Source: an uncultured Candidatus Binatia bacterium (GTDB taxonomy: Bacteria > Desulfobacterota > Binatia > UBA9968 > CAXXLF01). Taken from it: DNA of 64,000 nucleotides. Below are positions 4,111 to 22,324 of this stretch, piece by piece. The notes below the pieces were generated by a model that was given only the letters and a program-made list of their open reading frames with translations, was not told the DNA's origin and searched no databases. The first letter of the stretch is position 1. Each line of letters opens with the position of its first letter. Position numbers and translations under genes: made by a program. The stretch covers positions 1,184,001-1,248,000 of the forward strand of contig OZ244621.1 of NCBI GenBank assembly GCA_965218425.1. The letters are read 5' to 3'.

Positions 4111-5610
4111 ATGAAAACGATATGTGGGATTTTTACAGGCATGATAGTGTTCGTGGCGCTGGGTTGTGGAGGCACAAGCTCTAGTTCCAATTCCAATTTG
4201 CTCAATCAGAGTCCCGCGCTTAGGTACCCTGGTCGGGATTATCGTAACACCGCGGGAGTGGATATTCGTGATACCTGGAAAGAGACGAGCCCTATAAAGT
4301 CCCATTTCGGCCTGGAGCCTGGGGGTACGCCAATCGGCGGTCTTATTGATCATGCCGATCTTCCACAATTCAAAACGTCCGCGTGGACAATCCTGGGGTC
4401 AAAGAACGGTATCACTTACGGACAACAAATGTCGGGTCCCACAGACACCATCGACATTGATTTCACCGGATACTTTGCGGAATTGCCCGACTACGTGCAG
4501 GGCGCGCTGGAGCGGGCGGGGAAGTCCTGGTCTTATAGGCTGACCGACAAACTGGGTTCGCATCTATCAACGGATTCGCCTGTGACTGGGGTTACTAGAG
4601 TGGACGGACGAATTCCACCACGCAGCGTCGATGGTATTCTGATTGATATCGATTCCGATTATAACAACCCCGCGTGGGATTATGTTTGGGGGTATTCTCG
4701 TGGGACTTATCGGACCACTCAGACGGTAGGGGGGGACTTTACGGTCAGGACTGGTTGGGTCGATTTGGCGGCAACTACTATCGAGCAGGGTGATAGTTGG
4801 CTGGCACATATCGCTTCTCATGAAGTTGGTCACGCCATCGGACATAGTGCGACACATAATACGTTGCCAGAGACCATTGCCCGTTATGTGGACTTTGACC
4901 GGGGAGTATGGACCGGACCGGCATTGACGGCGGCTAATCGAGGCAGGAACGTGCCTTTCCAGGACCTTGACGGCGAAACGGATTTTGGTCACTTGGGTGC
5001 TTGCGCCATGATTATGTCCTATTGCGGTAATCCGATTGAAATCCCGCATGAGTTGGATTTCGCTTTCATGAAGGACATTGGCTACACCGTGGAGGACTCC
5101 TATCCTACAGTGCCCGAACAATACAGTTACGGCGCATGGGCGGAACATTCGGCTTGGGGTGTGTTGGCGGCTAGAAGTTTGACTTTCGCTTCCTATGGTA
5201 TAACCGATCATATTACGGTGCAGGCAGATGCCTTCGGGAACCCATCTAACACGGATTTTGCTGGTTCACATATCGGGACGCTACAGTGGAACGGTTCCTT
5301 ATTGGCGACGGATTTGGAGAAATTCGCGCCGGTTTTTGGCGATACACGTATTGTGTTGTCAGGTGACACCTTGGACGGCACTGTCTCATTTACGAATCTC
5401 CGTACGGTAAAAGATGCGGAAGGCGAGGTAGCGCTCATGCCGTGGCGCAGAGCTAGTTTAGGGTACGGCGTCAAGGTGGAAGGGAATAGTTTCAGGGATG
5501 TCGGTGAAAAAGTCAGCGGGGATTTCTACGGCCCGCAACACGAGGAAGTGGCCGGTGTCTTGAACGATGGGCCTGCAAAAATTCTGGGGGCTTTTGGCGG
5601 CACCAGATGA
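4111..5610 (+). CDS. Lipoprotein: zinc metalloprotease (metzincin-like) domain plus C-terminal transferrin-binding-like beta-barrel
   Basis: Lipobox VALGC, HEVGHAIGH zinc motif, IMSY Met-turn, C-terminal GDFYGPQHEEVAG...GAFGG; SD AGGAGG upstream. Confidence 0.75.
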   Translation: MKTICGIFTGMIVFVALGCGGTSSSSNSNLLNQSPALRYPGRDYRNTAGVDIRDTWKETSPIKSHFGLEPGGTPIGGLIDHADLPQFKTSAWTILGSKNGITYGQQMSGPTDTIDIDFTGYFAELPDYVQGALERAGKSWSYRLTDKLGSHLSTDSPVTGVTRVDGRIPPRSVDGILIDIDSDYNNPAWDYVWGYSRGTYRTTQTVGGDFTVRTGWVDLAATTIEQGDSWLAHIASHEVGHAIGHSATHNTLPETIARYVDFDRGVWTGPALTAANRGRNVPFQDLDGETDFGHLGACAMIMSYCGNPIEIPHELDFAFMKDIGYTVEDSYPTVPEQYSYGAWAEHSAWGVLAARSLTFASYGITDHITVQADAFGNPSNTDFAGSHIGTLQWNGSLLATDLEKFAPVFGDTRIVLSGDTLDGTVSFTNLRTVKDAEGEVALMPWRRASLGYGVKVEGNSFRDVGEKVSGDFYGPQHEEVAGVLNDGPAKILGAFGGTR

Positions 5611-6963: not shown

Positions 6964-7762
6964 CGAATATTTGCGGATCGTACTTGATGCGATTCGAGTC
7001 TGTGCGCACTACAAGCCGAAATTCGGTCAGGGAGCGAAGGGCGGTGGTTTGACGTTGGAACAGTTCCGTGACCTCTATCAGGGAGACGCCTTCTATAGCT
7101 GGTTCGGGTTGGATAACCCGATGATGTACGCGGCACACAAGGCTGCCGGAGGCATGACGAGTGTGTACCGGCAGATCGGAATTGGGTGCGAGAGGTTGTT
7201 TCGCAGGGTGGTGAAAGATTCTTTCGAATTGTCAGAAGAAGATGTGACCTGGTCGTATCAGGTGACGTTGCCAAGTGGACGGAAGCGAACACTGTATCTA
7301 GACGGGCGGGTACCTCTTGAGAAGATCGGCAACAAAGACAAACGGGAGCGTTTCCGTGGGTGGATGAGGGATTCTGCGAAGATGCTGGATGTTGAACAGA
7401 AGGTATTCGAGAGCTTGACGGGCACGATTTTTGAGATCCGGCAGGGTTATAAGAGCAAGGACTCGAAACGGCAGAATGCCGATATCGCCAACGCTGCCAC
7501 GGCCTACACGAAAGGGTATTTTCCTTGCGCAGTGATCTTGTCGGGACAAATCGACAGCGATGTGCTTTTGCGGTACCGTGCCGAGAAATGGTCGGTTGTG
7601 ACAGGGATTGTCGGTGCAACAGACCCGCTGATATCGACATATGACTTCATGCGGAATGTCATTGGATATGACTTATCGGCGTTCTTTGAACGGAATAGTT
7701 CCACGCTTCGCGAGGAGATCGACACCATTCTGATAGCCCTTTTAGCCCCGGAGGCGACATGA
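6947..7762 (+). CDS. Type II restriction endonuclease (AvaII/HgiCII-like by recall)
   Basis: YRQIGIGCE...LYLDG...FEIRQGYKSKDSKRQNAD, a PD-(D/E)xK-type pattern; 4-nt overlap with the downstream MTase. Confidence 0.75.
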   Translation: MNDTDDEYLRIVLDAIRVCAHYKPKFGQGAKGGGLTLEQFRDLYQGDAFYSWFGLDNPMMYAAHKAAGGMTSVYRQIGIGCERLFRRVVKDSFELSEEDVTWSYQVTLPSGRKRTLYLDGRVPLEKIGNKDKRERFRGWMRDSAKMLDVEQKVFESLTGTIFEIRQGYKSKDSKRQNADIANAATAYTKGYFPCAVILSGQIDSDVLLRYRAEKWSVVTGIVGATDPLISTYDFMRNVIGYDLSAFFERNSSTLREEIDTILIALLAPEAT

Positions 7763-9006
7763 GTGTAGTTGCCAGAGAAAAACTTCGCCAAAGAGCGGAC
7801 TATACGCATAAGTTCAACGCAAAGACGGGGCGGCATGGCTGGTTACGGCTGACACCTGCGTACTCGGTGAAGATTGTTGAAGAGCTTATGGACCAGTACG
7901 AAGAACCGTTGCGCGTGCTGGACCCGTTTTGTGGAACGGCGACGACAGCGCTGAGTGCGGCGTATCACGGGCACGAAGGCGTGACGACGGATATCAACCC
8001 GTTCCTGGTCTGGCTCGGCCAAGCGAAGATGGCGCAATACTCTGGTGCCTCGATAGTTTCGACACGTCGGGCATGTGCACGGGTGGTTGAGTCGGTGAAA
8101 CGGGGAGCGGTTGAGCCGGTGAAAGCGCCGCCTATTCATAACATTGAAAGATGGTGGTCGCCGGAAGCGCTGGAGTTTTTATGCACACTGAGGGCCGGTA
8201 TCGAAGCAGAAAGTAGGTACAATTCGCCGGAAAGGGCGTTTCTGCTGGTAGCGTTCTGTAGAACTCTGATCGAACTTTCGAACGCGGCTTTCAATCACCA
8301 ATCCTTGTCTTTTAAAGATGACGGGCAATTGCATCTCCAGCTCGATATCGACATGAGGCATGTGTTTAGCGAAGACGTGCAGTTCGTGTTGGAAGGTGCG
8401 GGGGAGAATCCGGAAGGAACGGGAAATGTAGTTTTCGGTGATTCCAGGAAGCTGCCGGGGGTAGTAGACGGCTCCTTCGATTTGGTGATTACGTCTCCGC
8501 CATATGTAAACCGGATGTCGTACATCCGTGAGCTGCGGCCGTACATGTATTGGCTCGGATTTCTGAATAACGGTCGGGATGCTGGCGAGCTTGACTGGAC
8601 GGCAATCGGTGGCACATGGGGGGTAGCAACAAGCAGACTGATTGATATGGAACGTCCAGGGGAGCCGTTTAAGCACCCGCTGCTCGATGAGGCATTGAAC
8701 GGGATAGCGCATCACGACAACAAGAGCGGGAAGATACTGGCAAGTTACGTGGCGAAGTATTTCGATGACATGTGGGAGCACTTTAATTCTCTAATCCCCG
8801 TGCTGAGCGAGGGCAGTGAGGTGCATTACATCGTGGGGAATTCCACGTTCTACGGTGTGCTCCTGTCGGTCGAGAGGCTATACGCGGCGATGCTTGAACG
8901 CTTGGGGTTTAAAGGGGTCGAGTGCCGCGCGATACGTAAGCGGAATTCAAAGAAAGAGTTGTTTGAGTTCGACGTTTCGGCGCGATGGATCGGGCGGAAG
9001 CCATGA
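7759..9006 (+). CDS. Amino-DNA methyltransferase (probably N4-cytosine, alpha order)
   Basis: Motif I LDPFCGTATT near the N-terminus and motif IV ITSPPY later. Confidence 0.88.
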   Translation: MSVVAREKLRQRADYTHKFNAKTGRHGWLRLTPAYSVKIVEELMDQYEEPLRVLDPFCGTATTALSAAYHGHEGVTTDINPFLVWLGQAKMAQYSGASIVSTRRACARVVESVKRGAVEPVKAPPIHNIERWWSPEALEFLCTLRAGIEAESRYNSPERAFLLVAFCRTLIELSNAAFNHQSLSFKDDGQLHLQLDIDMRHVFSEDVQFVLEGAGENPEGTGNVVFGDSRKLPGVVDGSFDLVITSPPYVNRMSYIRELRPYMYWLGFLNNGRDAGELDWTAIGGTWGVATSRLIDMERPGEPFKHPLLDEALNGIAHHDNKSGKILASYVAKYFDDMWEHFNSLIPVLSEGSEVHYIVGNSTFYGVLLSVERLYAAMLERLGFKGVECRAIRKRNSKKELFEFDVSARWIGRKP

Positions 9007-9081
9007 AGACGACTACGGATATGTAGTGGGAACAGTTAACGGATGAAGTGAAAGCAAAGAGTGATAAGCGATGTATCTTTG

Positions 9082-9588
9082 ATGAATAGGGAAGCGAGCA
9101 ACGAAAAGAGAGGAAGCGCAACGGCTCAGCCGTACGGTAGGCAGGCCGCGTTGCTTACGCTCGGGATCGCTCCAGTGATTTTTTCCAGTGAGCGAGTGCG
9201 GATTGGGCGCCTCGATCCGGAAGAACACGGGCTCATCAGGGATCTTCGTCTCGAACATCGGGGAACACATGCATTTCGCTTCGATGCCAGGGACATGAGG
9301 ATCGCGAATATCGGTCTCCGGCCGGATGTCGCGCCAATGGGGGAGATTGAAGAGGTTGCGGTCGGGAAGCACTTGTTGCTGCTGGCGGTGGCTATCGAAC
9401 ACCAGCTCTGGCACTGGCTGTCAGGCAGTCGGAAAATACTGCATCGCTTCCACCCGTTGATCTGTCTTGGCAACCGGGACCGGCTGTTGACGAAGGCGTT
9501 ACAGGAAGTCGGCATACAGTCGCCGGATACGCGACTTGATGTTGTCGCCAAATGGTCATTCGGTTTGCGTTGTGGGGTCAGACCTTGA
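9082..9588 (+). pseudogene. N-terminal fragment of a long prokaryotic Argonaute-like protein, cut off by repeat A
   Basis: LRLEHRGTHAFRFD...HLLLLAVAIEHQL...RFHPLICLG..DRLL..AL......RLDVVAKWSFGLR resembles by eye the N/L1 region of RsAgo-type long-B pAgos. The frame runs into the repeat at 9570. Confidence 0.55.
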
Positions 9589-10006
9589 CATTTGACATGA
9601 TTCATCTCGCCTTCTCAAAAGTTATTGAGAGAGCGCTAAAGCTCTCCCGCCACCGTCGCCTCCCAGGTTGCACTGTCCCGACACCACGGGGCGGCGGCTG
9701 CTGCAATATGCGTCAAGACGCCGTCGCATGACGTGGAGCGGCTCGGCCATGTCGTCTTTTGAAACCGGCGTCAGGCACGCCTTATTGCTACTCCGGGTTC
9801 CCTTCCCTTTCGGATTCCGGCCTGTATTGCGCCAATTCTTTTGTGGAACGTCCTGTCCATTTGGACGCGGTCCACCAAGGCATGGATGCGGTTCTTTCCC
9901 GTCAATTGCATTTACCTGGGCGTATCGCTTGTGAGAGCATGGGGCCTTCTCCTTTCAGGTTTGATGGCCGTTACAACCACCACACTACTGGAGCTTGACC
10001 CCTTTT
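9570..10006. repeat. Composite repeat (A + spacer + B + inverted D); bounded by GGGGTCAG...TTGACCCC, MITE-like
   Basis: 9570-9871 aligns co-linearly with 22681-22983. The element starts GGGGTCAGACC (9574) and ends GCTTGACCCC (10002). Confidence 0.88.
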
Positions 10007-10272
10007 TCATGTTACCTGACCCATGTTTCTTTTTTAGTAGGCTGTCAGCCTAATGATGAGCAAACTCCTGTTTAGCGTTATTGGATCGTCAATCAGGGCG
10101 GCTTTGGCCAGCTCCCGGGTAGTGGGTCATCACTAATACCTTAAATTAGTAATGTGTTCATGGAGCAGGGGATTTTGGTAGTCTCTCAGTTTGAAATTCA
10201 GTGTGCCCCCAGCTTGAAGGTTGTCAACCAGTAATAGACGGAGTATTCTTGAGTTACAAGGAGGATCTAGAA

Positions 10273-10437
10273 GTGAAAACTTCAACTGCCGAGAGCAAAA
10301 ACTATAAGTGTCCGAAGTGCGGTGACGATCTTACACAAGACCGGAAGGGTCAAGGCTTTGTAAGACACAAGAGTAATTCAGACTGCTATTATGAAAAAGG
10401 GGATAGAGATCACCCGACCCTGCGGTTGGGTAAATAA
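10273..10437 (+). CDS. Small putative zinc-binding protein
   Basis: SD AGGAGG before GTG; CPKC...H....C pattern; lies upstream of dndA. Confidence 0.45.
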   Translation: MKTSTAESKNYKCPKCGDDLTQDRKGQGFVRHKSNSDCYYEKGDRDHPTLRLGK

Positions 10438-10515
10438 GTATTTAATTCCCTTTCAATGTAGTCGAGAGGGTCGAATGCATCGTTTTAGCTCCGGCGGATT
10501 GATGTGGCAGGCGGC

Positions 10516-11769
10516 ATGAGTATTGGTAGAAACACGCAAACCGAGTGCAGACCGAGGGACGCTGTCTATCTGGACTATGCCGCAACGACGCCTGTCGACA
10601 CGCAGGTCATTGCGGTGATGATAAGGTATCTGGGGTTAGAGGGGATCTTCGGTAACGCTGCGTCGCGGTCACACCGCTTTGGACGCGAAGCCGAAGAGGC
10701 AGTGGAGATGGCACGAGAGCAAGTAGCCGAACTCATCAATGCTGATCCATCTGAGATTGTTTGGACATCGGGGGCTACTGAGTCCGTCAATTTGGCGATC
10801 AAGGGCGTAGCGCATGGACATGCCGACCAGGGCAAACATCTTGTCACTTCGAGTCTGGAGCACCATGCTGTTCTGGATTCATGCGATCAATTGGCCCGCG
10901 AAGGATATGAAATCACTTATGTTGACCCTGACCGGGACGGCCTGATCTCCCCAGAGCATGTGGAACAGGCCCTGAGAGACGACACCATTCTTGTCTCCCT
11001 GATGCATGTGAACAATGAAGTCGGGACCATCACCGACATCAAAGCGATAAGCGAAATAACCCGTGCCCGCGGGATCGCATTCCATGTGGACGCCGCACAA
11101 GGCGCGGCGCGTCTATCCCTCGACTTGCGCTCGATTCACGCGGACCTTGTTTCCCTTAGCGGACACAAGATGTACGGGCCAAAAGGTATCGGAGCGTTGT
11201 ACGTGCGTCACCGACCCCGCGTCCGGATCGAACCTCAGATACATGGCGGAGGTCAGGAACAGGGTATCCGCTCGGGGACGCTTGCGACACATCAAGTGGT
11301 CGGCATGGGCAAGGCCGCACAATTGACGTGTGAACGCCGAAAGCAAGATGTCGAAGCTGTCGCCGTGCTCGATCACCGCTTGCTGGAACGTCTTGCAGAT
11401 ATTGAGCACACCTTTATAAACGGCAACGAAACGCATCGTGTCTCAGGAATTGCAAACGTTGGCTTCGCATGCGTCGAGAGTGAGTCCCTCATGATGTCGT
11501 TGAAGGATGTTGCCATCTCATCCGGGTCGGCTTGCACCTCGTCCCACGTTGAGTCGTCCCACGTCTTGCGATCGCTAGGTTTGCCCGACGACCTTGCGAG
11601 TTGTTCAGTCCGCTTCAGCCTCGGACGATTCACGACCGAGCAGGAAGTCGACTTTGCTGCAGAGCGTGTGAGGGAATCCGTAAATGCGCTACGCCAATTG
11701 TCTCCCCAATGGAGATCGCTCCACCGAAACATTCGTAAAACTAAACCAAATCGCGTTCGTACTGATTAG
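10516..11769 (+). CDS. dndA: Cysteine desulfurase DndA (IscS family)
   Basis: [19 protein letters not shown] (PLP lysine) and SSGSACTS (catalytic Cys); 6 nt upstream of dndC. Confidence 0.92.
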
Positions 11770-11775
11770 TATGAC

Positions 11776-12969
11776 ATGAACGAGCACATCCAATTTAGAA
11801 ACATCGCAAGCGGCGACCATGGTAACATCTTCCATGTTGTCAAGCGTCTTGACGTCGCCATGGACGCCATTCGAAGAGAATACCTGCGAAAGCACGTCGA
11901 TCCGTGGGTGCTGGCCTATTCGGGCGGAAAGGACTCGACCCTGCTTCTTCAACTAACGTGGGAGGTGTTGGCATCGCTCCCTGTCCGTGATCGACGGCGT
12001 AAGATCTATGTCGTGGGCAACGACACGCTTGTCGAGTCGCCGTTGGTGATCCAGCATCTCAGAACCACTATGGCGACGATCAAGGATGCTGCTGCTGCGG
12101 ACGGACTGCCAATCGAGACGCAGATCACGAGGCCGCACATCGACCAGACTTTCTGGGTAAACGTGATTGGGCGCGGTTACATTCCCCCGACGCGGAACTT
12201 TCGGTGGTGTACCGATCGGATGAAAATCCTTCCGACTACCCAGCTCCTTGACGGACTCGTTCGATCACACAAGCGCGTTGTGCTACTGGTGGGAACGCGA
12301 AAAAGCGAGTCCGAGAATCGGCGCCGCAACATGACGAAGCATGGCGTTTCTGCAACCAAGATGAATCCTCACAGTTCCGTGGAACGCTGTCGAATGTTCG
12401 CGCCGCTGGCCGAATTCGAAGACCAGGACGTTTGGCTAATCCTGATGCAGCGAAAGCCACCGTGGGGCGGCTCGCATCGAGATCTAATCACGCTGTATCG
12501 TAATGCTGGAGGTGGAGAGTGCCCGTTGGTGCTGTCCAAGGCCGATGCCCCGTCATGCGGAACGACCTCGCCCAGGTTCGGTTGCTGGACATGTACGGTC
12601 GTAAAGAAAGATCGGAGCTTGCGAGGCTTGATTGATTCCGGTCACGAACACGCAGAAGTCTTCGCACGTCTCTTCGACTTTCGTGAGTGGCTGGTCCAAC
12701 TGCGTGAAGACAACGCAAATCGCCAGCGAGTGCGGAGGGACGGAAACTCCAAATCTCGTGCAGATGGAACCCTCGTGATGGGACCCTTCACGCTTGATGT
12801 TCGCGAACGTATCCTGCGCCGACTAAAGGTGCTCGAAGACGATACTAGGCAGCAACTCATTTCCGAATCTGAGCTTGATGTTATCAAAGACATCTGGCGT
12901 TGCGATCAGGTTCGAGAAGAGTGTCGCACTGCGTTACGCAACACGTTCGCCGACGGAGCCTCAGTTTGA
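11776..12969 (+). CDS. dndC: DNA phosphorothioation sulfurtransferase DndC (PAPS-reductase family)
   Basis: WVLAYSGGKDS, DTLVE, FWVNVIGRGY, FRWCTDRMKI, ECPLV, RFGCWTCTVV. Confidence 0.95.
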   Translation: MNEHIQFRNIASGDHGNIFHVVKRLDVAMDAIRREYLRKHVDPWVLAYSGGKDSTLLLQLTWEVLASLPVRDRRRKIYVVGNDTLVESPLVIQHLRTTMATIKDAAAADGLPIETQITRPHIDQTFWVNVIGRGYIPPTRNFRWCTDRMKILPTTQLLDGLVRSHKRVVLLVGTRKSESENRRRNMTKHGVSATKMNPHSSVERCRMFAPLAEFEDQDVWLILMQRKPPWGGSHRDLITLYRNAGGGECPLVLSKADAPSCGTTSPRFGCWTCTVVKKDRSLRGLIDSGHEHAEVFARLFDFREWLVQLREDNANRQRVRRDGNSKSRADGTLVMGPFTLDVRERILRRLKVLEDDTRQQLISESELDVIKDIWRCDQVREECRTALRNTFADGASV

Positions 12970-14756
12970 CAACTCAGCGCCAGACGGTCATTGAGGCGGA
13001 GGCGATGTTGTTTTCGGACCTTTTCCCCCAGGGCCGATTCGCCGTCCCGTGGCACCAGCGCTACTACGATTGGAAGCCGAGCGATGTCCGAGCACTTCTC
13101 TACGATATCGATGAAGCGATCAAGGAAAAGCGCGAGTGTTACTTTCTGGGTGCGGTGATGCTGGTTGAAGTCGAACCTAGAAAATGGGAGATCAACGACG
13201 GCCAACAACGAATGGTAACAATATCGCTGATCTGTGCCGCACTTTGCCGACGATTCGCTCGGGAAGAAAGGGGTTCGCAACGTGAAGGGCTCGCGCTGTG
13301 CATGCTGTTCGATCTGAACACTAATAGCGTCTCGACTTCAGACGACGTGGAACGCTACACTCCCCGGATTTCCCCACCGCAGAACGACGCGGCGCGGTAT
13401 CACCAGTTGATCCGTGGCAACACGATTGGAACCAACGGCAAGCTCACCGCCGCATGGGCAGAGATTGAAAAATTCTTCACTCCGATGAGTCAGGAAAAGT
13501 CGAAGGAGTATTTCGACTTTCTTTACAAAAAGTTGGAAATTACCTGCTTGCAGGTTCCGTCAAACATAGATTCGAACGCGGTGTACGAGACGCTTAACTA
13601 TAGAGGCAAGAAACTCGACGATTTGGACCTGATCCGTAATCATCTGTATTCGCACTTCAACGTGACCGGCGAATCCGAGAGAAGGCAATCGATACATGTG
13701 AATCTTGAGAGGATCCGCACAACGATTGCCAGCACCACAAAGGCATCCGAATACTTGCGTTGTCACCTGCAATGCCGGTTCGGCTTCCTTAGCAAGGACA
13801 ACTTCTACCGCGACGTACGTTCTGCCATTAAAACACGGAGGAATAATGAGCGCGGGCCGACGGGTTCCCAGGCCGACTACGTCTTCCACCTAACGAAACA
13901 AATCTCTGCTCCTGAGTCTCTGCAACTCTTCCAGACGATGACGGCAAAAGGCCCAGAACCGGAATTTATCAGGGCGTTCGAAAAGGACTCTGGGACAACA
14001 AATTCACCGAGGAATCTAGAAGTTTTTTTTCGGGAGTTGGGTGCATATAAGGTCACTCAGCCCCTAATTTTCGCCATGTTGACCAGGTACATACGTGAAT
14101 CGGACGGCGGAACAAAGAGGCAGATTGCAAGGTCCGTCAATAAAAACCTGAGTCGCTTGGCGACATTCGTCCTCAGAACGGCATTTGTTGCACCTAAGTT
14201 TGAGCCTTCGCATTTCGAAACAAAGTTTTCCAACTATGCCAAACACATCGCAACCGCCAACGTCCTTCCTAATGACAAATTTGCTGATTTTCTAAAGGAA
14301 TGCGATGCTTCAGAACACGGAGTGCTAGATGACTCCAAGTTCCAAAACGCTATGGTCGAGGCGACGATGAAGGACAAAAAAAAGATCAAGCGGTTTCTGC
14401 TCGGGATTAATCGCAACATACAACACGGTGCACGGCTATTGAACGAGCAATCCTGTAACGTCGAGCACATACTGCCAGAATCTTCGCAACACTGGAGTGC
14501 TTGGACCAGCTTCAAGGATGTCGATGGGAGCGAGTGGGTTAATAGAATCGGGAATCTGACCCTGGTGGGACCGGCGGACAATCAGCCTGGACCGAAGTAT
14601 AATGGTGATTTTGCGAAGAAGCGCGAGAGCTATCGAGGCAGTGAAGTCGCGCTTACCCGTGAGCTGAGCAAACACGTTGATTGGACCCCTACCACCGTCG
14701 AAGCGAGACAGCGGGAGTTGGCGAAACGAGCCGCGCGTGTTTGGACGTTCGTTTGA
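12966..14756 (+). CDS. DUF262 + DUF1524(HNH) protein, GmrSD/SspE-like modification-linked nuclease
   Basis: VPWHQRYYDW, INDGQQR, YETLNYRGKKL; C-terminal VEHILP...IGNLTL...N. The TTG start overlaps the dndC stop (TTGA). Confidence 0.88.
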   Translation: MTTQRQTVIEAEAMLFSDLFPQGRFAVPWHQRYYDWKPSDVRALLYDIDEAIKEKRECYFLGAVMLVEVEPRKWEINDGQQRMVTISLICAALCRRFAREERGSQREGLALCMLFDLNTNSVSTSDDVERYTPRISPPQNDAARYHQLIRGNTIGTNGKLTAAWAEIEKFFTPMSQEKSKEYFDFLYKKLEITCLQVPSNIDSNAVYETLNYRGKKLDDLDLIRNHLYSHFNVTGESERRQSIHVNLERIRTTIASTTKASEYLRCHLQCRFGFLSKDNFYRDVRSAIKTRRNNERGPTGSQADYVFHLTKQISAPESLQLFQTMTAKGPEPEFIRAFEKDSGTTNSPRNLEVFFRELGAYKVTQPLIFAMLTRYIRESDGGTKRQIARSVNKNLSRLATFVLRTAFVAPKFEPSHFETKFSNYAKHIATANVLPNDKFADFLKECDASEHGVLDDSKFQNAMVEATMKDKKKIKRFLLGINRNIQHGARLLNEQSCNVEHILPESSQHWSAWTSFKDVDGSEWVNRIGNLTLVGPADNQPGPKYNGDFAKKRESYRGSEVALTRELSKHVDWTPTTVEARQRELAKRAARVWTFV

Positions 14757-14901
14757 TGCTTGATACACCACAACTTCGGCGTCTCGCCGAGGACCATCTC
14801 CACGTTCCCACGACGCTTCATAACTAAACAATGAGAAAGTATCAGGTCCTTGTCTTTGTTCAAATTCACGATTGAAATGAGACGTTGGGGAGTATGTTGT
14901 C

Positions 14902-15111
14902 ATGAAAATATCAAAAGATGAAATTGAACTCATATCAAAGATCGCTGCCGATCACGAAATCAAAGGTGATGTGATCGTACAACTTCTTGAGCTTGAAGAG
15001 GAATTTCCAGATGTTCACGCGTGGGGAGCACGTGCAAATCTTAAACGTAAAATTGCTCAAACACTTGAGCAAGCAGCAAATCAGGCGAACCCGACCGATC
15101 CTAATCGATGA
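14902..15111 (+). CDS. Small Dnd-associated helical protein
   Basis: 69 aa, QLLELEEE..., with an ATGA overlap with dndD; resembles the small genes found between dndC and dndD. Confidence 0.7.
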   Translation: MKISKDEIELISKIAADHEIKGDVIVQLLELEEEFPDVHAWGARANLKRKIAQTLEQAANQANPTDPNR

Positions 15112-17144
15112 TCTTCAAACGCATACGCCTTGAGAACCTGTTTGCCTATAAGGGTATTCAGGAAATTGATCTTACGGGGTGCGGTAAGGGAAGGAACATT
15201 ATTCTTATTTCTGGCCGCAATGGTACAGGTAAAACAAGCTTTATCAATGCTGTCAAACTTCTATTCCTTGGCGCTAACGATCAGCGTCTGCGACGTGTTG
15301 GCTTCCCGCCTACGACTCTTGCCACAGGCCAATTTGTTCGGGGTGTTCCGGGCGTGTGGTCCGGTTTGTTCAACACTCAAGCGCGACGCGACGATTCTGA
15401 ACGAGCGTCAATATCAATCATTTGGGAAGAAGAAGATGGAGTTGAGTTTGAGGCCCGACGAAGCTGGCGTTTGAATGGTCCTAGCTACGAAGAGAACCTC
15501 GATCTATACAAAAACGGAGAAGCGTCAAATCCAGACGACGTCTCCTTGCAGCTTGCAGAAAAACTGCCGCACGACTTTGTGCCGTTCTTCTTTTTTGACG
15601 GCGAACAAATTCGTGAACTTGCCGAAGCGGAGGAGGATATCACTGCAAATGAGATCGAACGCATATTGAACCTCTCCTTTGTGGGCGAAATAGAACAGGG
15701 CGTGTCGGAATTCGTACGGCAGCGTCGCCGTGAGGCGCTACCCGAAGAAACGCAGGTTCGAATACGACGTGCCGAGGGAGAACTTGCCACGAAACAGGCA
15801 GAAAAAGCGGTGGCGGAAAGACGGCTGATGAATTTTCAAGAGGCCATCCAGAAGACCGAGTCCCGCAAACGTGAACTGACGGTCGAGAGGGACGAATTAC
15901 GTACCGGTGTTTCCGACGCGGACCGACTGCTTCTCGAACAACGCCTGGAGACGTTGGAATCGCAAAGATCGGATTTGGCCCGTAAGATCAGCGAGACTCT
16001 GCCGCCAGAGGCGCCGTTCCTCGCAAACCTTAAACTAACACTCCGCGCATACGGGGATGTAGAAACCGTCGTATCGGCACGAGCCGCTCAGGAACTTGGG
16101 AGGCTCGACACTCTACGTCGAGAACTGCCCCACCGGCTGCTGGATCAGGAGCCACACCCTGAAACGCCGCTCGACCCATCCCAGATTGAACACTTACGCG
16201 GGAAGCTCCTATCGCTCATAGAAGAATATACTACTCTGGAGACAGCAGATCAGTTGCCATCCTATCTCCGAACACTCGATCTTGCTAGCGCCCAGAGTTT
16301 GCGCGACCGTTACCTAATTTGGGTTCGCGAGGGCGTAAGACACAGACGTTCCATCGCCACAGAGTTACAACAGATACGCAAGCTTACTGTAGAGGCGGAA
16401 CAAACGACGGAAGAACTAGCCCGGGTATCTGTCGCGTCGAAGGGCCACCTTCAACGCTTTCGCGAGATATCCAAGGAGCTTGACGAACTCGATAATGAAT
16501 TAGCCGCTAAGCACGAGGATGTCGGAAAGGTTGAGGCCGAAATCTCTCAATGCGCGCGCACCATATCCGAAACCCGTAAGCAAGTCGCCGCGCTTGAAGA
16601 AGAACACGAACAAGCCAGAATGACTGGCCAGACTGTCCAATACGCAAGACATGTCGAGGCAGTTCTGCACGAATATAGAGCACGCCAAAGAGAGTTGAGG
16701 CGCACCTCTGTCGAAAAACGCATTAACGAGAAACTGGGTATTCTTCTAGCCGAACACGGACAAATCGGGCGCGTAAACCTCAGCAACCGGTTCATAATGA
16801 CGTATTATGACAAACATGATCAAAAAATTGGGCGCGTAAGTATTTCTGCCGGCATGAAGCAGCTCGTCGCAACAGCATTACTGTGGGCACTAAAGGACGA
16901 ATCCGGTAAGAAGATACCTCTGGTCATCGATACACCACTTGCTCGCATCGACCGCCGAAATCGCGCGCGTCTTTTGGACTCCTATTACCCTAATGCGGGG
17001 GAGCAGGTCATTGTGCTCCCCACAGACAGCGAGATTGATGACAGCCAGTTACTGCATCTCGCTCCACATATTGCCAAAAGGTACCGGATAGAGAATGTCG
17101 ACGGCGAAAACGCCAAGATTGTTCTGGATCAAACCAATGTCTAA
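15108..17144 (+). CDS. dndD: DNA sulfur modification protein DndD (SMC-like ABC ATPase)
   Basis: GRNGTGKTS, FFFFDGEQI, long coiled coil, ISAGMKQ, IDTPLARID, YYPNAGEQVIVLPTDSEI. Confidence 0.95.
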   Translation: MIFKRIRLENLFAYKGIQEIDLTGCGKGRNIILISGRNGTGKTSFINAVKLLFLGANDQRLRRVGFPPTTLATGQFVRGVPGVWSGLFNTQARRDDSERASISIIWEEEDGVEFEARRSWRLNGPSYEENLDLYKNGEASNPDDVSLQLAEKLPHDFVPFFFFDGEQIRELAEAEEDITANEIERILNLSFVGEIEQGVSEFVRQRRREALPEETQVRIRRAEGELATKQAEKAVAERRLMNFQEAIQKTESRKRELTVERDELRTGVSDADRLLLEQRLETLESQRSDLARKISETLPPEAPFLANLKLTLRAYGDVETVVSARAAQELGRLDTLRRELPHRLLDQEPHPETPLDPSQIEHLRGKLLSLIEEYTTLETADQLPSYLRTLDLASAQSLRDRYLIWVREGVRHRRSIATELQQIRKLTVEAEQTTEELARVSVASKGHLQRFREISKELDELDNELAAKHEDVGKVEAEISQCARTISETRKQVAALEEEHEQARMTGQTVQYARHVEAVLHEYRARQRELRRTSVEKRINEKLGILLAEHGQIGRVNLSNRFIMTYYDKHDQKIGRVSISAGMKQLVATALLWALKDESGKKIPLVIDTPLARIDRRNRARLLDSYYPNAGEQVIVLPTDSEIDDSQLLHLAPHIAKRYRIENVDGENAKIVLDQTNV

Positions 17145-17147
17145 GGA

Positions 17148-18647
17148 ATGACCATGGACAAATTTTATTTCGGACGAGATGAACGAGCTTTCATGTTCCG
17201 CGTGATAGAAAAAGGAATGCTGCAAAAGCCAGGCCAAGCTCCACAATGGTGGGTTGTACGCCTCGCCTTGGCAAAATCTTTACAATTCGAAGAGCCTCCC
17301 AACGATGATAAGTTTGCGCCGCCACCGCATGTCCAAGGCGGAAGCGAGTTGCACCTTGATCAGATTACCGGAAAAGATAAGGGCGGATTGGAAGATTATA
17401 CACGCGCGTTGAAGCTTTTGCTGTCGGCACGTCATGGTGCCGACCTTATAAGCAATGATGCACTTTTTGAAGAGACACTACACAGACATATACGCAGAGG
17501 TCTTCATGAAATAAAAATTTCGTGGCGTGAAAATTCTGATTTCTTTGATTATTTGTATCAAGATTTGTTCTTTGAGAAGTTTACAAACGAATCCGGTGAG
17601 ACAAGCCTCGGCGATATATCAAATGAAGACCTGACTTTAGCACTGCATAAGATAGGGGTACGCGTTGAGGTTGAACAAAAACTTGATGGCCCAAGATTGT
17701 CGCGCTTCAGACTTGTTTTATCCGGTGTCGACGATTACGACAAACTACGAAGAAACATCGACGATCTCAACTTTATTCTTGGTCTGAGTGCTAACAGCAT
17801 ATCGTTTGAATTGGGTGGGGGCGAACGCAGGATTGTCTTGGACATCCCGCGACCAATGTCCATCTGGCACTACATAAAATGGGCTGAGGCTCAGAAGGCT
17901 CTTCAGGAAACGTCCTACCGCTTGCCTGTCTGTTCGGCTACCGACGTTCTGGGCGTTCCCATTTCTTTTGATTTGGCCTCCGCGCCCCATCTCTTGATAG
18001 GCGGCACCACTGGTAGCGGGAAAAGCATCTGTGTCCACGCGATCATATTGTCGCTGATTGTGTGCGTTGAGCGCCCGGAGTTGGTTCTCGTTGACCCGAA
18101 GGCTGTCGAGTTGACGGCGTATACGAACTACGGAAATCTGAGAGGAGGCCGTGTCATTACAGATATGGCTGATGCGAGGGCTGTTTTTCAAGAACTTGTG
18201 AAGACGATGGACCAAAGGCAAAAGGACTATATGTCTATCGGCGTGCGCGACATCGACGAAGCTCGGAAAAAGGGTAGCGATGACCGCAGCATTGTGGTGG
18301 TCGTCGACGAACTGGCAGACCTTGTCCTAGGAAACCCAGAGGTTGTCGGTCCACTTGTCCGTCTTGCCCAAAAGGCGCGCGCTTTTGGCATTCATTTAGT
18401 GTTGGCCACACAGCGCCCAGAGGCAGGAACATTTCCCGGCCTGTTACGGTCCAACATACCAAGCCGTATCGCGCTGACTGTCCAGAAAAATTCCGAGTCA
18501 CGGATCATCCTGGATGAGGGAGGCGCGGAGAACCTGCTCATGCGGGGCGACATGCTTGTACGCATGGTCGGTCAGAAGACAATCCGCGCGCATGGCGTCA
18601 GCGTGTCGCAGTCGGATATCGAAAGGGTTCTTGCCGAACATGGCTAA
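17148..18647 (+). CDS. dndE: DndE-like domain fused to an FtsK/SpoIIIE ATPase domain
   Basis: The N-terminal PQWWVVRLALAKSL...GSEL...RHIRRGL is DndE-like. The C-terminal GPRLSRF, PHLLIGGTTGSGKS, LVDPK, VVDELADL, LATQRP and GAENLL.RGDML are FtsK motifs. No TM segments or gamma domain. Confidence 0.82.
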   Translation: MTMDKFYFGRDERAFMFRVIEKGMLQKPGQAPQWWVVRLALAKSLQFEEPPNDDKFAPPPHVQGGSELHLDQITGKDKGGLEDYTRALKLLLSARHGADLISNDALFEETLHRHIRRGLHEIKISWRENSDFFDYLYQDLFFEKFTNESGETSLGDISNEDLTLALHKIGVRVEVEQKLDGPRLSRFRLVLSGVDDYDKLRRNIDDLNFILGLSANSISFELGGGERRIVLDIPRPMSIWHYIKWAEAQKALQETSYRLPVCSATDVLGVPISFDLASAPHLLIGGTTGSGKSICVHAIILSLIVCVERPELVLVDPKAVELTAYTNYGNLRGGRVITDMADARAVFQELVKTMDQRQKDYMSIGVRDIDEARKKGSDDRSIVVVVDELADLVLGNPEVVGPLVRLAQKARAFGIHLVLATQRPEAGTFPGLLRSNIPSRIALTVQKNSESRIILDEGGAENLLMRGDMLVRMVGQKTIRAHGVSVSQSDIERVLAEHG

Positions 18648-19815
18648 CGAAGAGCGCAATATCCACATCCGCGACTTCCGTCTGGTTAAGCTCACACTCG
18701 TAGATGTTGGCCCATTTCGGGAGTATTATGAAATAGACTTTACTGGCGCACCGCTATCCACAGGTGCCGAGAAGGGCAGTGAAACCGCGTGCGAACCAGC
18801 AAATTTTTTCTTGTTACTTAGCAAGAATGGTTTCGGCAAAACCACGGCCCTTGAGGTGATCACGCTACTTTTTGATCTGCTCGGCAAATCTGAAGCTTCC
18901 CGTTTTGGCCATTACGACCTCGATGATGGCACGGGTAAGATACAGGCAGATTTTCGTGCTAACTGGTCTATCGACGACTCGCGCTCACCCGTCCTTCTTT
19001 CGATCTGGGCGGGAAGCGAAGGACCCGTTTATGTTTGGACCAAAAGTGATATCGAGTCTGTTGCGAATGCCTCTGAGTGGGCCAAGGTAGGCTTTGTACG
19101 TTCGCGATCATCAGACCGGATAGAGCTTGGGCCAGGAACAAACGAACTTGGCAAGATCCTCGCAACGGCTATCCGGCACGCGGTCGGCACACCGCCGCCA
19201 GCGCTGTTCGGAGAGGGTTTTGATCTGCCGACAGTGCTCTTCTTTCCAGCCGACCGCGCCGTAAGGCGCCCGCCACTTGCGGGCCGTGCAGTGTCGAGGC
19301 CGGAGCACTGGGGATATCGACCGTCCTTTCGGTTTGAAGTCGACGGGACTGAGTGGGCGAACTCCCTTGACAATTTGTTGGTTTGGCTCTCGTGGCTGGC
19401 GGACGACAGAGACCGTGTCTTGCGAGAATACGTTGAGAAAACCGTATTTATGGATGGCAGAAAAGGATTACTGGAAGTAGACCGTGAGCGACTATCCGCC
19501 AATGTCAAGACACCCGACGGGGTACATCCGCTCTACAACCTCAGCCACGGTGAAAGGCAGGTGTTGCAACTTCTTGTACGCACACCGGTCCACATGACGA
19601 ACAGCACGATTTTGCTGATCGATGAAGTCGAAATGCACCTGCATCCAAAGTGGCGGGTCACACTATTGGAAACGCTCAAAGTGCTTGTCAAAGATTTTGA
19701 GGGCCTTTCAGTAATTGTGACAACCCATGAGCGCGAACTCATACAGGTGTTTCAACATGAAGTGCCCGAAGAGGGCTTAGTGAAAGGTGGATTCTTGATC
19801 GAGCAGGACTTGTAA
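18640..19815 (+). CDS. ABC-type (AAA_15/AAA_21) ATPase, AriA/OLD-like
   Basis: Walker A variant SKNGFGKTT, signature LSHGE, Walker B LLIDEVEMHLHP, TTH; overlaps both neighbours. Confidence 0.85.
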   Translation: MANEERNIHIRDFRLVKLTLVDVGPFREYYEIDFTGAPLSTGAEKGSETACEPANFFLLLSKNGFGKTTALEVITLLFDLLGKSEASRFGHYDLDDGTGKIQADFRANWSIDDSRSPVLLSIWAGSEGPVYVWTKSDIESVANASEWAKVGFVRSRSSDRIELGPGTNELGKILATAIRHAVGTPPPALFGEGFDLPTVLFFPADRAVRRPPLAGRAVSRPEHWGYRPSFRFEVDGTEWANSLDNLLVWLSWLADDRDRVLREYVEKTVFMDGRKGLLEVDRERLSANVKTPDGVHPLYNLSHGERQVLQLLVRTPVHMTNSTILLIDEVEMHLHPKWRVTLLETLKVLVKDFEGLSVIVTTHERELIQVFQHEVPEEGLVKGGFLIEQDL

Positions 19816-20690
19816 TGCCGAACTTAAGAGAGCTGGGGGACAGCAATGCTGTTGATAATAAGTATGTCGACCGGATCGTGTTTTATGTAGAAGGTGAGGA
19901 TGATAAAAGTCTTCTGACTGTCTACTTGTTGAAGCATTACGTCTCTAAAGTTGAAGTCAAAACGCCATCAGCATTGGGAAGCGGTTACCTGGGGGTAATT
20001 CAACGGGTTAGCCAAGAGCGAGGTATGAACGGAAAAATCTTCGGCATAGTCGATGGTGAAGCGCTTTTGCCCTTGGGGCATGTTTCGATATACAAAGAGA
20101 TGTTTGGAGGATGGAATTGGATCACCCTTCCTAAATTTGACGGCATTTACTTTATTCCGTGTTGGGAGATAGAAAACCTTCTCTATATTAGAGATATTTT
20201 GCCACAGACGCTTATTGCCCTTCAGCCTGTATCGAAGCTCTCGCGTTTGACTGAAAGATCTGTCGAAAACATCATCCTGACGGAGGCATTCCGACTTTCA
20301 GAGTTATCTTCGTTGAATTTAGCACTTTTAGCAGAGTCGTATGATACAATAAGAGCAGAAACAAAATCGAACATTGAGAAAAGACATGATTTACTTACGG
20401 AAATTGGGACGACGATCGCCTCGTTAGATAAGGCTCACTTAGTGAAAAATGGGTATGATAATTGGAGGCAATTTTTTCGCGAGCTCCTTCGAGGGAGCCG
20501 AACACGAGACAAAATATACGATGAATTTATTAGTCGTGTTGACGGGAAGGCATTATCTATAAGATTGAGTAAAAAATTAAATGTTCAACCCGACATTCGT
20601 TCAACACTCGCGTACAATTTTTCCAATAATAAGAAAACAATGAAAATTATTGACGCGCTATTGGAAACGGTCAATCGGCGCGTTCCGTGA
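19815..20690 (+). CDS. TOPRIM-fold nuclease (DUF4435/AriB-like)
   Basis: IVFYVEGEDD, GIVDGE, WEIENLL and a C-terminal DGK; TAATG coupling to the ATPase; visibly AT-richer. Confidence 0.75.
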   Translation: MPNLRELGDSNAVDNKYVDRIVFYVEGEDDKSLLTVYLLKHYVSKVEVKTPSALGSGYLGVIQRVSQERGMNGKIFGIVDGEALLPLGHVSIYKEMFGGWNWITLPKFDGIYFIPCWEIENLLYIRDILPQTLIALQPVSKLSRLTERSVENIILTEAFRLSELSSLNLALLAESYDTIRAETKSNIEKRHDLLTEIGTTIASLDKAHLVKNGYDNWRQFFRELLRGSRTRDKIYDEFISRVDGKALSIRLSKKLNVQPDIRSTLAYNFSNNKKTMKIIDALLETVNRRVP

Positions 20691-20904
20691 ATTGTGGCTA
20701 ATCATCTGAAATTGAAGTATGCTTCAATAATCGTTACGCAAGCCGTTGCTCGTATTAACCTAAATTTTGCAGTTGATGCTGGTGCACAGCTATCGTTTGG
20801 AGGGTTTTTCAACCAGTTGGTGCAGTCTGAAGGGGCGTGAGCCATCGCTGTCGACCCGGTTGTCGACCTCCGGGATATTCTTTAACGCTTCGATCAGGAA
20901 TTAG

Positions 20905-21014
20905 TGTCGGGCACACTTTTTTGCTATTCTGGGTTTCCTTCCCTTTCGGATTCCAGCTTGAATTGTACCAATTCTCTCTTGCAATGTCCTGTCCATTTGG
21001 ACGCGGTGTTCTAA
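20905..21014 (-). repeat. Repeat module B, copy 3
   Basis: TTGCTATTCTGGGTTTCCTTCCCTTTCGGATTCC...TTGCAATGTCCTGTCCATTTGGACGCGGTGTTCTAA is closest to the copy at 22897-22990. Confidence 0.85.
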
Positions 21015-21232: not shown

Positions 21233-22324
21233 TTATCGATTAGCATTCCGAAGTTCGCGATGAATGATCCGGTGACAGTTTGCGCATAGGCACATCAGGT
21301 CTTGCAGTTGCGTATTGTGTCCGGGCGGCATGTCGGCTAACGGAAGTTTGTGATGCACATCGATGCACGCATCACCGATATCGATCCCATAGACTTCTGC
21401 CGGATCTAGTCCGCAGCGTTCGCATAGCAATCGGCCGTGTTCACTTATGAACGCCGCCTTTTTTGCCGGTGCAAGCCCCCATCCCCGCTCGCGTTGAAGG
21501 TGGATTACATACTTCGGGTGCCCTTCGATCCAATCGCGTTCGTCCGGGTTTGGCGGTACTTCAACGGGTTGGACCGGCCCGTCCTTCGGGACGATCCGGT
21601 ATCCGGCGGCGGTGATCGCTTTGAAGCAGGGGGTTCCGATGCCACCCACAAAGTGATACGGCAAAACCTCGAAGCCGAGAGCTTCGGACACCGCTAGACC
21701 GAACACGGCCTTAGGTGCAAGGCGCGACCCGTCCTCGGTAATAACGTCATAGTCAGTGGATTCACCGAACGAATGCTCGCCTGAACCGAAAAGAAGCCGT
21801 TGCACCGCACGCCAGATGTGTTCGGCAGATACCGGCTGCAACTCTGCAGCCCGTAGCCTTTTGCGTCGGTTTGAGGCTGCGCCAGTCTCGCCCCAGCCTG
21901 CAATCCGGGCGATCCGCTCGCCGGGGGGATTTCCGGTAAATGCGAAACGAAGCCTTTTTGTGGAATTTCCACGGTTGTTTCGGTTGTTCGGATCACGACC
22001 GACCGCAGCCATTCTGTTCGAGAATCTGGTGAACAATTCAGACGGCGAAACCTGAGTGTCTTCGGGAAGGAGTATTTTTCTTTCCTCCATTGGCAAATTT
22101 TGGACACGACTGCTGTCTACCCACACTCCGACCAACGTCAGGTCCGATTGATCGATTCGCTCGAGAAGAATACGCAGTGCCTCACCATATTTAGTGTTTT
22201 GTGCGTTGGTGGTGTCTTTGGTTCCGCCGCGCGAATGCAAAATTAGTTTTCCTTCCTGTACTTCGAAATGAGCATCCATTGGAGTACCGGAATCATTGTG
22301 GAATTTGTATAAGGTTACCGACAC
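21233..22324 (-). CDS. HNH endonuclease, McrA-like putative modification-dependent (type IV) restriction enzyme
   Basis: C-terminal EG...HLQRER...CERC...IDVHH..PL...DLMCLCANCHRIIH; middle domain with APKAVFGLA...FVGG, like the ScoMcrA head domain. Confidence 0.8.
   Translation of the reverse strand: MSVTLYKFHNDSGTPMDAHFEVQEGKLILHSRGGTKDTTNAQNTKYGEALRILLERIDQSDLTLVGVWVDSSRVQNLPMEERKILLPEDTQVSPSELFTRFSNRMAAVGRDPNNRNNRGNSTKRLRFAFTGNPPGERIARIAGWGETGAASNRRKRLRAAELQPVSAEHIWRAVQRLLFGSGEHSFGESTDYDVITEDGSRLAPKAVFGLAVSEALGFEVLPYHFVGGIGTPCFKAITAAGYRIVPKDGPVQPVEVPPNPDERDWIEGHPKYVIHLQRERGWGLAPAKKAAFISEHGRLLCERCGLDPAEVYGIDIGDACIDVHHKLPLADMPPGHNTQLQDLMCLCANCHRIIHRELRNANR

Follow-up and report, generated by a model that had tools for sequence, protein, structure and literature searches.

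Defence based on phosphorothioate (PT) modification of DNA is understood mainly through DndFGH, PbeABCD, SspE/SspFGH, and DndI. Some Dnd PT systems have a DndE that is joined to HerA/FtsK ("clade-3" HerA/FtsK) and lies beside a DndD-related ATPase; this subset was described by Rakesh, Aravind and Krishnan (NAR 2024), where section 22 gives the fusion one sentence and cites Krishnan et al. 2020. Here, we analyzed an eight-gene operon containing such a fusion in the genome of an uncultured Candidatus Binatia bacterium. The operon lies in a stretch of 64,000 nucleotides (nt) of contig OZ244621.1, the whole of which is referred to below as the window. The initial annotation of the window had proposed a Dnd-type operon with three built-in candidate effector modules, namely a GmrSD-like nuclease, an FtsK motor, and an ATPase-TOPRIM pair. 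Our analysis indicates that the locus is probably an intact, horizontally acquired Dnd operon of the DndE::HerA/FtsK subtype, in which a pair of genes resembling PARIS serves as the effector and the GmrSD-like gene is an embedded extra.

Several described systems bear on this operon. PARIS is reported to consist of two genes; the product AriA detects phage proteins, Ocr among them, and then sets free AriB, a nuclease that cuts tRNA-Lys. PARIS belongs with Gabija, AbiL, and MAD3-4 to the OLD-like ATPase/TOPRIM systems. HEC-06 is a validated GmrSD-like defence gene, embedded in the same orientation in other defence systems, whose DGQQR and EH motifs are required (Payne et al., bioRxiv 2024). A DUF262+DUF1524 protein of a dnd locus, DndI, is reported to sense PT and to restrict phages together with IscS-DndBCDE.

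Identification of the Dnd core

The product of dndC scores 346 bits with the curated model TIGR03183, whose cut-off is 290.4 (model positions 5-365 of 447), and matches the DndC model of PADLOC (2.3e-113; positions 9-386 of 481). Its translation keeps the SGGKDS motif and the CxxxxxxxxCxxC cysteine group, and the polypeptide ends without a C-terminal tail. The dndD product, which is the sole TIGR03185 match in the genome, also passes the cut-off of its model (293.4 bits against 245.85; positions 1-637 of 650). The dndA product matches Pfam Aminotran_5 (1.5e-83), PADLOC DndA (3.1e-158) and SspA (2.7e-159), and NCBIfam IscS (578 bits). Since two more cysteine desulfurases, 50% and 40% identical to this protein, are encoded elsewhere in the genome, the desulfurase of the operon was regarded as a dedicated extra copy.

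The gene downstream of dndD encodes a fusion protein with matches to Pfam FtsK_SpoIIIE (3.1e-36) and DndE (2.2e-5), the latter scoring 25.1-26.1 bits against a cut-off of 25. When 14 N-terminal regions of the fusion family were aligned, DndE was found in all 14 and FtsK_alpha in 10. Residues 1-250 were modelled with AlphaFold (predicted local distance difference test score, pLDDT, 77), and the model was compared with 48,161 representatives of the PDB. The best structural match was the DndE of Natronorubrum (7x4e; Z 11.7, root-mean-square deviation 3.0, 111 of 114 residues, model residues 1-131), and residues 154-240 matched the alpha domain of Escherichia coli FtsK (Z 9.7). A PDB search with a sequence profile of the N-terminus and a Foldseek search with its model returned weak matches to FtsK alpha alone. 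The C-terminal half of the protein is an FtsK motor that terminates without a gamma domain. The sole DndE domain of the genome resides in this fusion, and an ordinary FtsK is encoded elsewhere. It is apparent that the FtsK motor belongs to the core, being fused to DndE, and that it is not the separate effector module that had been proposed.

DndC and DndD pass curated cut-offs and the fold of DndE was matched, so the assignment as a Dnd-type locus was borne out. Four features of the subtype of Rakesh et al. (2024) recur in the window: DndE fused to the motor, a DndD-type ATPase next to it, DndC, and the Pfam Sp-DndD small protein (SP). Because a fusion beside a DndD-type ATPase is already reported there, the operon is assigned, on the similarity of its proteins, to the DndE::HerA/FtsK subtype. 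The idea that the fusion itself was unpublished was dropped for the same reason. The combination of genes had been presented as not recognisable as a characterized system; this no longer applies to the fusion, which is in print, but none of the PADLOC models spans the whole operon. Sections 12, 13, 14, 16, 17, and 22 of Rakesh et al. (2024) mention neither an ATPase-TOPRIM companion, nor SP as a part of DndC, nor a GmrSD-type gene, some of which the supplement may cover.

The absence of dndB, dndFGH, and pbe genes from the window was confirmed. DndB (TIGR03233) had no match in the whole 4.46-Mb single-contig genome. The DndFGH-associated models TIGR03236, TIGR03237, and TIGR03238 (dnd_assoc_1-3) likewise had no match in the genome, so that dndFGH was not found elsewhere; these models matched no control genome, and the sensitivity of this search is unproven. 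Nor did the genome yield a Pbe partner.

A Pbe reading of the DndD ATPase was considered, as the PbeC models of PADLOC score above its DndD models on this protein (1.8e-100 vs 1.1e-85). It was rejected because the translation has two cysteines and no C-x-C, and because no PbeA is present. PbeABCD (a CxC ABC ATPase, DndE, a small protein, and an HKD-helicase) resembles the window operon in having a small protein, a DndD-like ATPase, a DndE-like protein, and a nuclease beside PT genes. However, the window DndD lacks the C-x-C hook and passes the DndD equivalog cut-off, none of the eight genes encodes an HKD or helicase domain, the nuclease is a TOPRIM protein, and the motor is FtsK.

Conservation of the core and the ATPase-TOPRIM pair

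Well over 100 full-length homologues of the fusion, 47-78% identical to it, were found in Burkholderia, Ralstonia, Mesorhizobium, Sphingopyxis, and others. Within the phylum of the window, 400 other genomes were searched and none had the fusion; in the Magnetococcus phylum, 13 of the 401 genomes sampled, the centre genome included, had it (about 3%). This distribution indicates that the operon was most likely acquired horizontally.

Gene order was compared across 17 related loci on genomes and plasmids (L004, L005, L085, L086, L101-L112, and L172) and 50 on metagenome contigs, the latter including the near-duplicates L119/L120, L129/L131, L122/L125, and L161/L164. The metagenome loci were found with an alignment of the fusion N-terminus; a single N-terminal sequence used as the query found none. 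In a genome scan with the full-length fusion alignment, 78 of 80 kept loci matched through the FtsK part alone (from about residue 100 on), and the useful loci were L004 and L005.

The dndD gene lies directly upstream of the fusion gene in all 17 genome and plasmid loci, in three of which a contig end cuts dndD. Of these 17, 14 have the ATPase and TOPRIM genes after the fusion; L108, L112, and an Aureimonas plasmid lack them. In 36 metagenome loci, the contig extends 2.2 kb or more past the open reading frame (ORF) that matches the fusion N-terminus; the pair was found in 33 of these and missed in L155, L161, and L167. The block dndC-dndD-dndE::ftsK-ABC ATPase-TOPRIM recurs with these same counts on genomes or plasmids (14/17) and in metagenomes (33/36). 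Over both sets, the pair comes after dndE::ftsK in 47 of the 53 loci that have sufficient DNA, with proteins that are 30-40% identical and with stop and start codons that mostly touch or overlap. In several genomes, the five-gene block is cleanly inserted between housekeeping genes (dnaE, RNase E, purL, and hisZ/purA). Variant loci were also observed. L164 and L165 have the order SP-DndD-ATPase-TOPRIM, followed by an unfused DndE of 144-148 amino acids (aa) with no FtsK domain, and L161 contains the ATPase and no TOPRIM match. The block is therefore not confined to this contig, the GmrSD-like gene excepted, and of the three proposed effector modules the ATPase-TOPRIM pair is the one that stood, as a conserved companion of the DndD-DndE::FtsK core.

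A gene for a TusA-family sulfurtransferase was observed after the cassette in three loci, L110 (6373-6609), L111 (13347-13631), and L172 (10407-10643); on the Aureimonas plasmid, its position is directly after the fusion gene.

Similarity of the pair to PARIS

The AlphaFold model of the TOPRIM protein (pLDDT 87.5) gave its best structural matches to AriB of PARIS (8ux9_A and 8v46_D; Z 15.3, 242 and 240 residues of 291), and the runner-up matches were C-terminal regions of OLD proteins (Z 6-7; top 7.1). The AriB model of PADLOC matched the window protein (5.8e-7) and 23 of 27 family members, and it was the sole PADLOC family that matched most of them. Pfam DUF4435 scored 26.3 bits, slightly below its cut-off of 27. 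The acidic columns E26, D30, D80, E118, and E120 are invariant in the family. A PDB search with the sequence profile of the TOPRIM family returned no match. Judging from its modelled fold, the TOPRIM protein is AriB-like.

The partner ATPase matches Pfam AAA_21 (1.1e-15). The PADLOC models of AriA, PtuA, and mad3 each matched all 34 members of the ATPase family, in every case through the C-terminal ABC (ATP-binding cassette) region alone. In a PDB profile search, AriA (1.6e-11) was in the top three groups, and retron ATPases matched alike. The window thus has in common with PARIS a two-gene pair of an ABC ATPase and a DUF4435/TOPRIM protein, the latter matching AriB over its whole length. It differs from PARIS in that the pair is joined to a Dnd core, not stand-alone, and in that the ATPase has 391 aa compared with 464 aa for AriA. 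These results suggest that the pair is a stable though not obligatory companion of the Dnd core and a credible effector.

The operon was also compared with MADS (mad1-8), in which an enzyme that marks DNA is likewise accompanied by two ATPase modules, one of them an ATPase/Toprim module split between MAD3 and MAD4. Window proteins match mad3 (3.8e-12 for a 433-aa ORF; 2.8e-12 when read from ATG 18640) and mad8 (4e-28). On the other hand, the mark of MADS is N6-methyladenine, whereas that of the window would be PT, and no other mad genes were identified in the window. The likeness is one of design, not of membership.

SP as the C-terminal tail of DndC

The small gene between the GmrSD-like gene and dndD had been left without an assignment. 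Its product, SP, matches Pfam PF20306 (Sp-DndD; 6.9e-11) and aligns with positions 404-458 of 481 of the PADLOC DndC model (E 2e-4). Where dndC abuts dndD in relatives, DndC is 436-494 aa long, and the free small proteins can be aligned with its final ~65 residues. A BLAST comparison of SP of Magnetococcus with the C-terminus of fused DndC gave 74% identity over 69 aa (E 5.7e-34). A profile of the tail found this element directly upstream of dndD in all 13 genome or plasmid loci that have upstream DNA; 11 of these sequences went into building the profile, and its independent matches among the genome loci are L101, L102, L107, and L112. The same profile matched directly before dndD in 37 of the 50 metagenome loci, as a fused tail in 21 and as a split protein in 16. 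Of the 13 loci with no tail match, 12 are on contigs that start inside or after dndD, and the remaining one, L155, is a fragment. When Pfam Sp-DndD was applied to fused DndC tails, one of six matched at E <= 0.01, and the link between SP and the DndC tail therefore rests on BLAST and on our own profile. By model match, BLAST, and profile, the 69-aa SP is identified at the sequence level as the detached C-terminal tail of DndC.

In a quick tree of DndD, the split forms of DndC and its tail appear in four or more separate positions, indicating that the split arose repeatedly. For E. coli B7A, AlphaFold3 models and pull-downs are reported to show that the head of DndD binds DndC residues 433-482 and that the coiled coil of DndD binds the last helix of DndC (IJMS 2025). 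Since this C-terminal part of B7A DndC holds the interfaces with DndD, SP is, by analogy, a probable DndD-binding element.

The embedded GmrSD-like gene

The GmrSD-like gene is placed exactly between the DndC body and SP. Its product matches Pfam GmrSD_N (1.5e-23) and GmrSD_C (6.2e-22), and the translation keeps DGQQR and the EH..N..N nuclease motif. It matches HEC-06 of PADLOC at 4.5e-72 over model positions 11-556 of 558, and its matches to Orf5 (2.1e-51) and SspE (1.9e-14) are weaker. Like HEC-06, it combines a full-length match and the DGQQR and EH-type motifs with an embedded, co-oriented position in a multi-gene defence system. The described hosts of HEC-06 are Hma, type I restriction-modification, and BREX, whereas the host here is a Dnd operon and the gene lies inside a split gene (dndC and its tail). 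Against its neighbours, the gene showed no clear foreign sign in base composition.

It was considered whether the GmrSD-like nuclease, the FtsK motor, and the ATPase-TOPRIM pair might all read PT, the GmrSD-like enzyme being a DndI/SspE-like nickase that replaces DndFGH. DndI is itself a DUF262+DUF1524 protein in a dnd locus that senses PT and restricts phages, and the build and the neighbourhood of the window protein are alike. In a phmmer search, the best PDB sequence match of the window protein was DndI (9JFL; 2.3e-10); both proteins have 596 aa when the window protein is read from its TTG start, both halves align, and DGQQR is kept. In addition, the gene lies inside the operon with tight junctions, and the searches for DndFGH-associated proteins, which were made without a positive control, found no match in the genome. 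However, the match to DndI is distant and far weaker than that to HEC-06. In the alignment with 9JFL, the PT-sensing tyrosine (Y25 of DndI, Y30 of SspE) corresponds to a histidine of the window protein (P-W-H-Q vs P-T-Y-Q). Furthermore, such a gene is not conserved with the Dnd subtype: it was found in none of the 67 other loci (phmmer on the ORFs of 66 loci and the annotation of the Aureimonas plasmid), a set that leaves out the contexts of the closest homologues of the fusion, P0002-P0012, which are 60-78% identical. Because none of these loci carries one, the conserved system does not need the GmrSD-like gene, and the claim that this nuclease is an arm of the system was not supported. GmrSD-like genes are also described as typical embedded passengers of other defence systems. 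A reading of PT by all three modules is accordingly regarded as unlikely, and we are similarly doubtful of a PT-sensing role for the GmrSD-like enzyme. From its sequence relationships, the gene is probably an embedded, autonomous extra of the HEC-06 type.

Relationship to a tandem locus of Mesorhizobium

Among the loci examined, that on plasmid pM0123d of Mesorhizobium amorphae (L086; 1730-12454) was the most similar to the window (DndC 48%, fusion 47%, and ATPase 39% identity). Its gene order is dndA-dndC-DndD-DndE-SP-DndD2-DndE::FtsK-ATPase-TOPRIM, so that the DndC|SP junction, the site of the GmrSD-like gene in the window, is filled there by a canonical DndD-DndE pair. A degraded locus on a Rhizobium plasmid (L085) has the same layout in fragments. 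The DndD of the window and that of the Mesorhizobium type are sisters with a Shimodaira-Hasegawa-like approximate likelihood ratio test (SH-aLRT) value of 100, in a quick tree with no bootstrap in which the grouping joins two long branches. A gene encoding a DGQHR (DndB-like) protein was also observed on the opposite strand of pM0123d.

This resemblance raises the question of whether SP-DndD-DndE::FtsK and the ATPase-TOPRIM pair form a PT-independent, DNA-scanning defence that makes little or no PT, with dndA and dndC being remnants of a tandem arrangement like that of Mesorhizobium in which the GmrSD-like gene took the place of the canonical DndD-DndE. Two genomes favour such a view: in G456 and G535, SP, DndD, and the fusion are present, and no dndC was found anywhere in either genome. 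The G456 locus (L101) has the ATPase-TOPRIM pair, and the G535 locus (L112) does not. A third genome, G472, holds only a remnant of dndC, and the dndC of a fourth, G484, has an internal stop codon. Most loci, on the other hand, have dndC with its tail directly before the fusion-associated DndD and no other DndD or DndE nearby, and the fusion-associated DndD-DndE must therefore be able to serve DndC. The dndA and dndC genes of the window are, moreover, intact, with all motifs and tight junctions, and the DndD grouping carries the limits given above. We consider a PT-independent origin of this kind improbable for the window operon.

Operon layout and surrounding genes

The claim of eight co-oriented ORFs was supported by the ORF calls and the profile identities. 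ORF listing and inspection of the translations showed that all eight are uninterrupted, within an operon of 10.2 kb (Table 1). The catalytic motifs are intact in every enzyme of the operon, including Walker A and B in DndD, FtsK, and the ABC ATPase.

Table 1. Positions in the window of the genes of the operon and of its spacer.
Feature	Position	Strand	Basis or remark
dndA, IscS-type cysteine desulfurase	10516..11769	+	alternative start GTG 10504
dndC body, PP-loop/4Fe-4S sulfurtransferase, 397 aa, without C-terminal tail	11776..12969	+	TIGR03183
GmrSD-family nuclease gene, DUF262 NTPase + DUF1524 HNH-like	13005..14756	+	alternative start TTG 12966
Spacer, 145 nt, GmrSD-like gene to SP; sole loose junction	14757..14901		sequence read
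SP (Sp-DndD), 69 aa, split-off C-terminal tail of DndC, probable DndD-binding element	14902..15111	+	Pfam PF20306
dndD	15108..17144	+	TIGR03185
dndE::ftsK, DndE (two ribbon-helix-helix units) + FtsK alpha + FtsK motor	17148..18647	+	Pfam, model
AAA_15/21-type ABC ATPase, candidate AriA-like TOPRIM partner	18640..19815	+	Pfam AAA_21
AriB-like TOPRIM (DUF4435) nuclease	19815..20690	+	structure match, PADLOC AriB

The junctions had been described as overlaps or short gaps with a single exception, and most of them were reproduced: a 6-nt gap between dndA and dndC, the 145-nt spacer, an ATGA overlap between SP and dndD, a 3-nt gap between dndD and dndE::ftsK, an 8-nt overlap between dndE::ftsK and the ATPase gene (given a start at ATG 18640), and TAATG between the ATPase and TOPRIM genes. 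The TTGA junction claimed between dndC and the GmrSD-like gene requires the TTG 12966 start of the latter. The in-frame ATG 13005 is preceded by a purine-rich GAGGCGGAGG run and would leave a gap of 35 nt; on these features, it appears at least as likely to be the start as TTG 12966. Within the 145-nt spacer, GGGGAG is located 9 nt ahead of the ATG of SP, and no terminator-like site was reported on the + strand.

The window was compared with contigs of four sequencing runs from one study. Contigs from run X1 are identical to the window over 9993-12231 and 12202-20947, and X1 may be the source sample. Three further runs of the same study (X2-X4) gave short identical pieces at low depth; some joints had short sides at 80% likeness, and nothing was concluded from them.

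Defence-like genes and genes that could not be assigned abound in the first 24 kb of the window. From about 24.7 kb on, the genes are ordinary metabolic ones, and no tRNA gene was found in the first 34 kb. Upstream of the operon, an HSDR_N_2-domain protein is encoded at 1282-2142 (-), and a 499-aa ORF at 4111-5610 (+) has no Pfam match. A 415-aa protein similar to type II DNA methyltransferases is encoded at 7759-9006 (+), 1.5 kb upstream of dndA (PADLOC MTase_II 2e-26, with a weak mad2 match); no partner nuclease was identified. The 175-aa ORF at 9061-9588 (+) matches the first ~130 of 724 positions of the PADLOC class II pAgo model (2.9e-11) and may be an Argonaute gene fragment or a stand-alone N-terminal domain. 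Just upstream of dndA, at 10201-10437 (+), a 78-aa protein has a CPKCG-type zinc-ribbon motif and a weak match to DUF7501 (4.6e-4). Downstream, a gene at 21233-22324 (-) converges on the end of the operon and encodes a 363-aa protein with a C-terminal HNH motif (Pfam 2.4e-4; PADLOC type IV methyl-directed restriction endonuclease 3e-9). Taken together, the first 24 kb look like a variable defence island.

In such a setting, three functionally uncoupled systems packed side by side might be suspected (a Dnd module that only modifies DNA, a GmrSD-type enzyme, and PARIS, the latter two stand-alone), as automated models name the parts separately (DndA/C/D, HEC-06, and AriA/AriB), PARIS is reported to function with two genes, some relatives lack the ATPase-TOPRIM pair, and other defence-like genes (the methyltransferase, HSDR_N, and HNH proteins) lie nearby, but this explanation is very unlikely because the pair is conserved behind dndE::ftsK with mostly touching or overlapping junctions, the five-gene block is cleanly inserted between housekeeping genes in several loci, and L164 and L165 keep the pair with SP-DndD and an unfused DndE while L161 keeps the ATPase alone.

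Proposed mechanism

In the reading favoured here, that of an intact, acquired Dnd operon with a PARIS-like effector and an embedded GmrSD-like extra, DndA would hand sulfur to DndC, which would insert it into DNA. SP would dock on the head of DndD in the manner of the corresponding part of E. coli DndC. DndD-DndE would select the sites, with the fused FtsK motor driving the complex along DNA and DndE filling the sequence-reading place that the gamma domain holds in cellular FtsK. As the effector, the PARIS-like pair might be released once a phage protein disables the machine and, as PARIS does, act abortively, perhaps by cutting tRNA; alternatively, the pair might be recruited to unmarked DNA. 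The GmrSD-like enzyme would add a largely autonomous layer of NTP-dependent nuclease activity.

Several observations weigh against this interpretation. The state of dndC in G456, G535, G472, and G484 indicates that it is dispensable in some relatives, and the core may consequently work without PT. The pair is missing from three of the 17 genome and plasmid loci and is thus an add-on, not a fixed part. The likeness of the ATPase to AriA is confined to generic C-terminal ABC motifs, as it is for PtuA and the retron ATPases. Because the DndD of the window groups with the Mesorhizobium type, which carries a canonical DndD-DndE as well, the window might have lost its canonical modification pair. 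Finally, among the papers listed by full-text literature searches there was no bench study of any DndE::FtsK system. Above all, given the relatives that survive without dndC, it is uncertain if the operon makes PT and reads it at all.

A bolder possibility, which we put forward tentatively and hold to be less probable than not by a clear measure, is that SP-DndD-DndE::FtsK and the AriA/AriB-like pair constitute a self-sufficient immune machine for which PT marking is optional. A motor-driven scanner would patrol DNA, and the pair would guard the scanner and fire when phage anti-restriction proteins jam it. SP would then be a plug or adaptor on the head of DndD that decides whether DndC docks, and additional defence genes would have inserted repeatedly at the DndC|SP split. 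If this were true, the window would hold a three-layer defence expressed from one operon.

Implications

Within the known subtype, the window is set apart by its GmrSD-like gene embedded at the DndC|SP split and by dndA. Two points may be new, namely that the companion pair is PARIS-like and that SP originates from DndC, although the supplement of Rakesh et al. (2024) or Krishnan et al. (2020) may already hold them. The DndE::FtsK subtype is common, considering that it occurs in about 3% of the 401-genome sample of one phylum, and the compact, intact operon of the window is a convenient construct for tests. A PARIS-like companion would link a DNA-marking system to a class of effectors that sense phage anti-restriction proteins. 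A Pfam "small protein" that is a DndD-binding tail of DndC would offer a direct handle on the recruitment of DndC. The DndC|SP split, used as an insertion site by the GmrSD-like gene in the window and by a second DndD-DndE pair in Mesorhizobium, would extend the idea of the embedded defence gene to Dnd operons.

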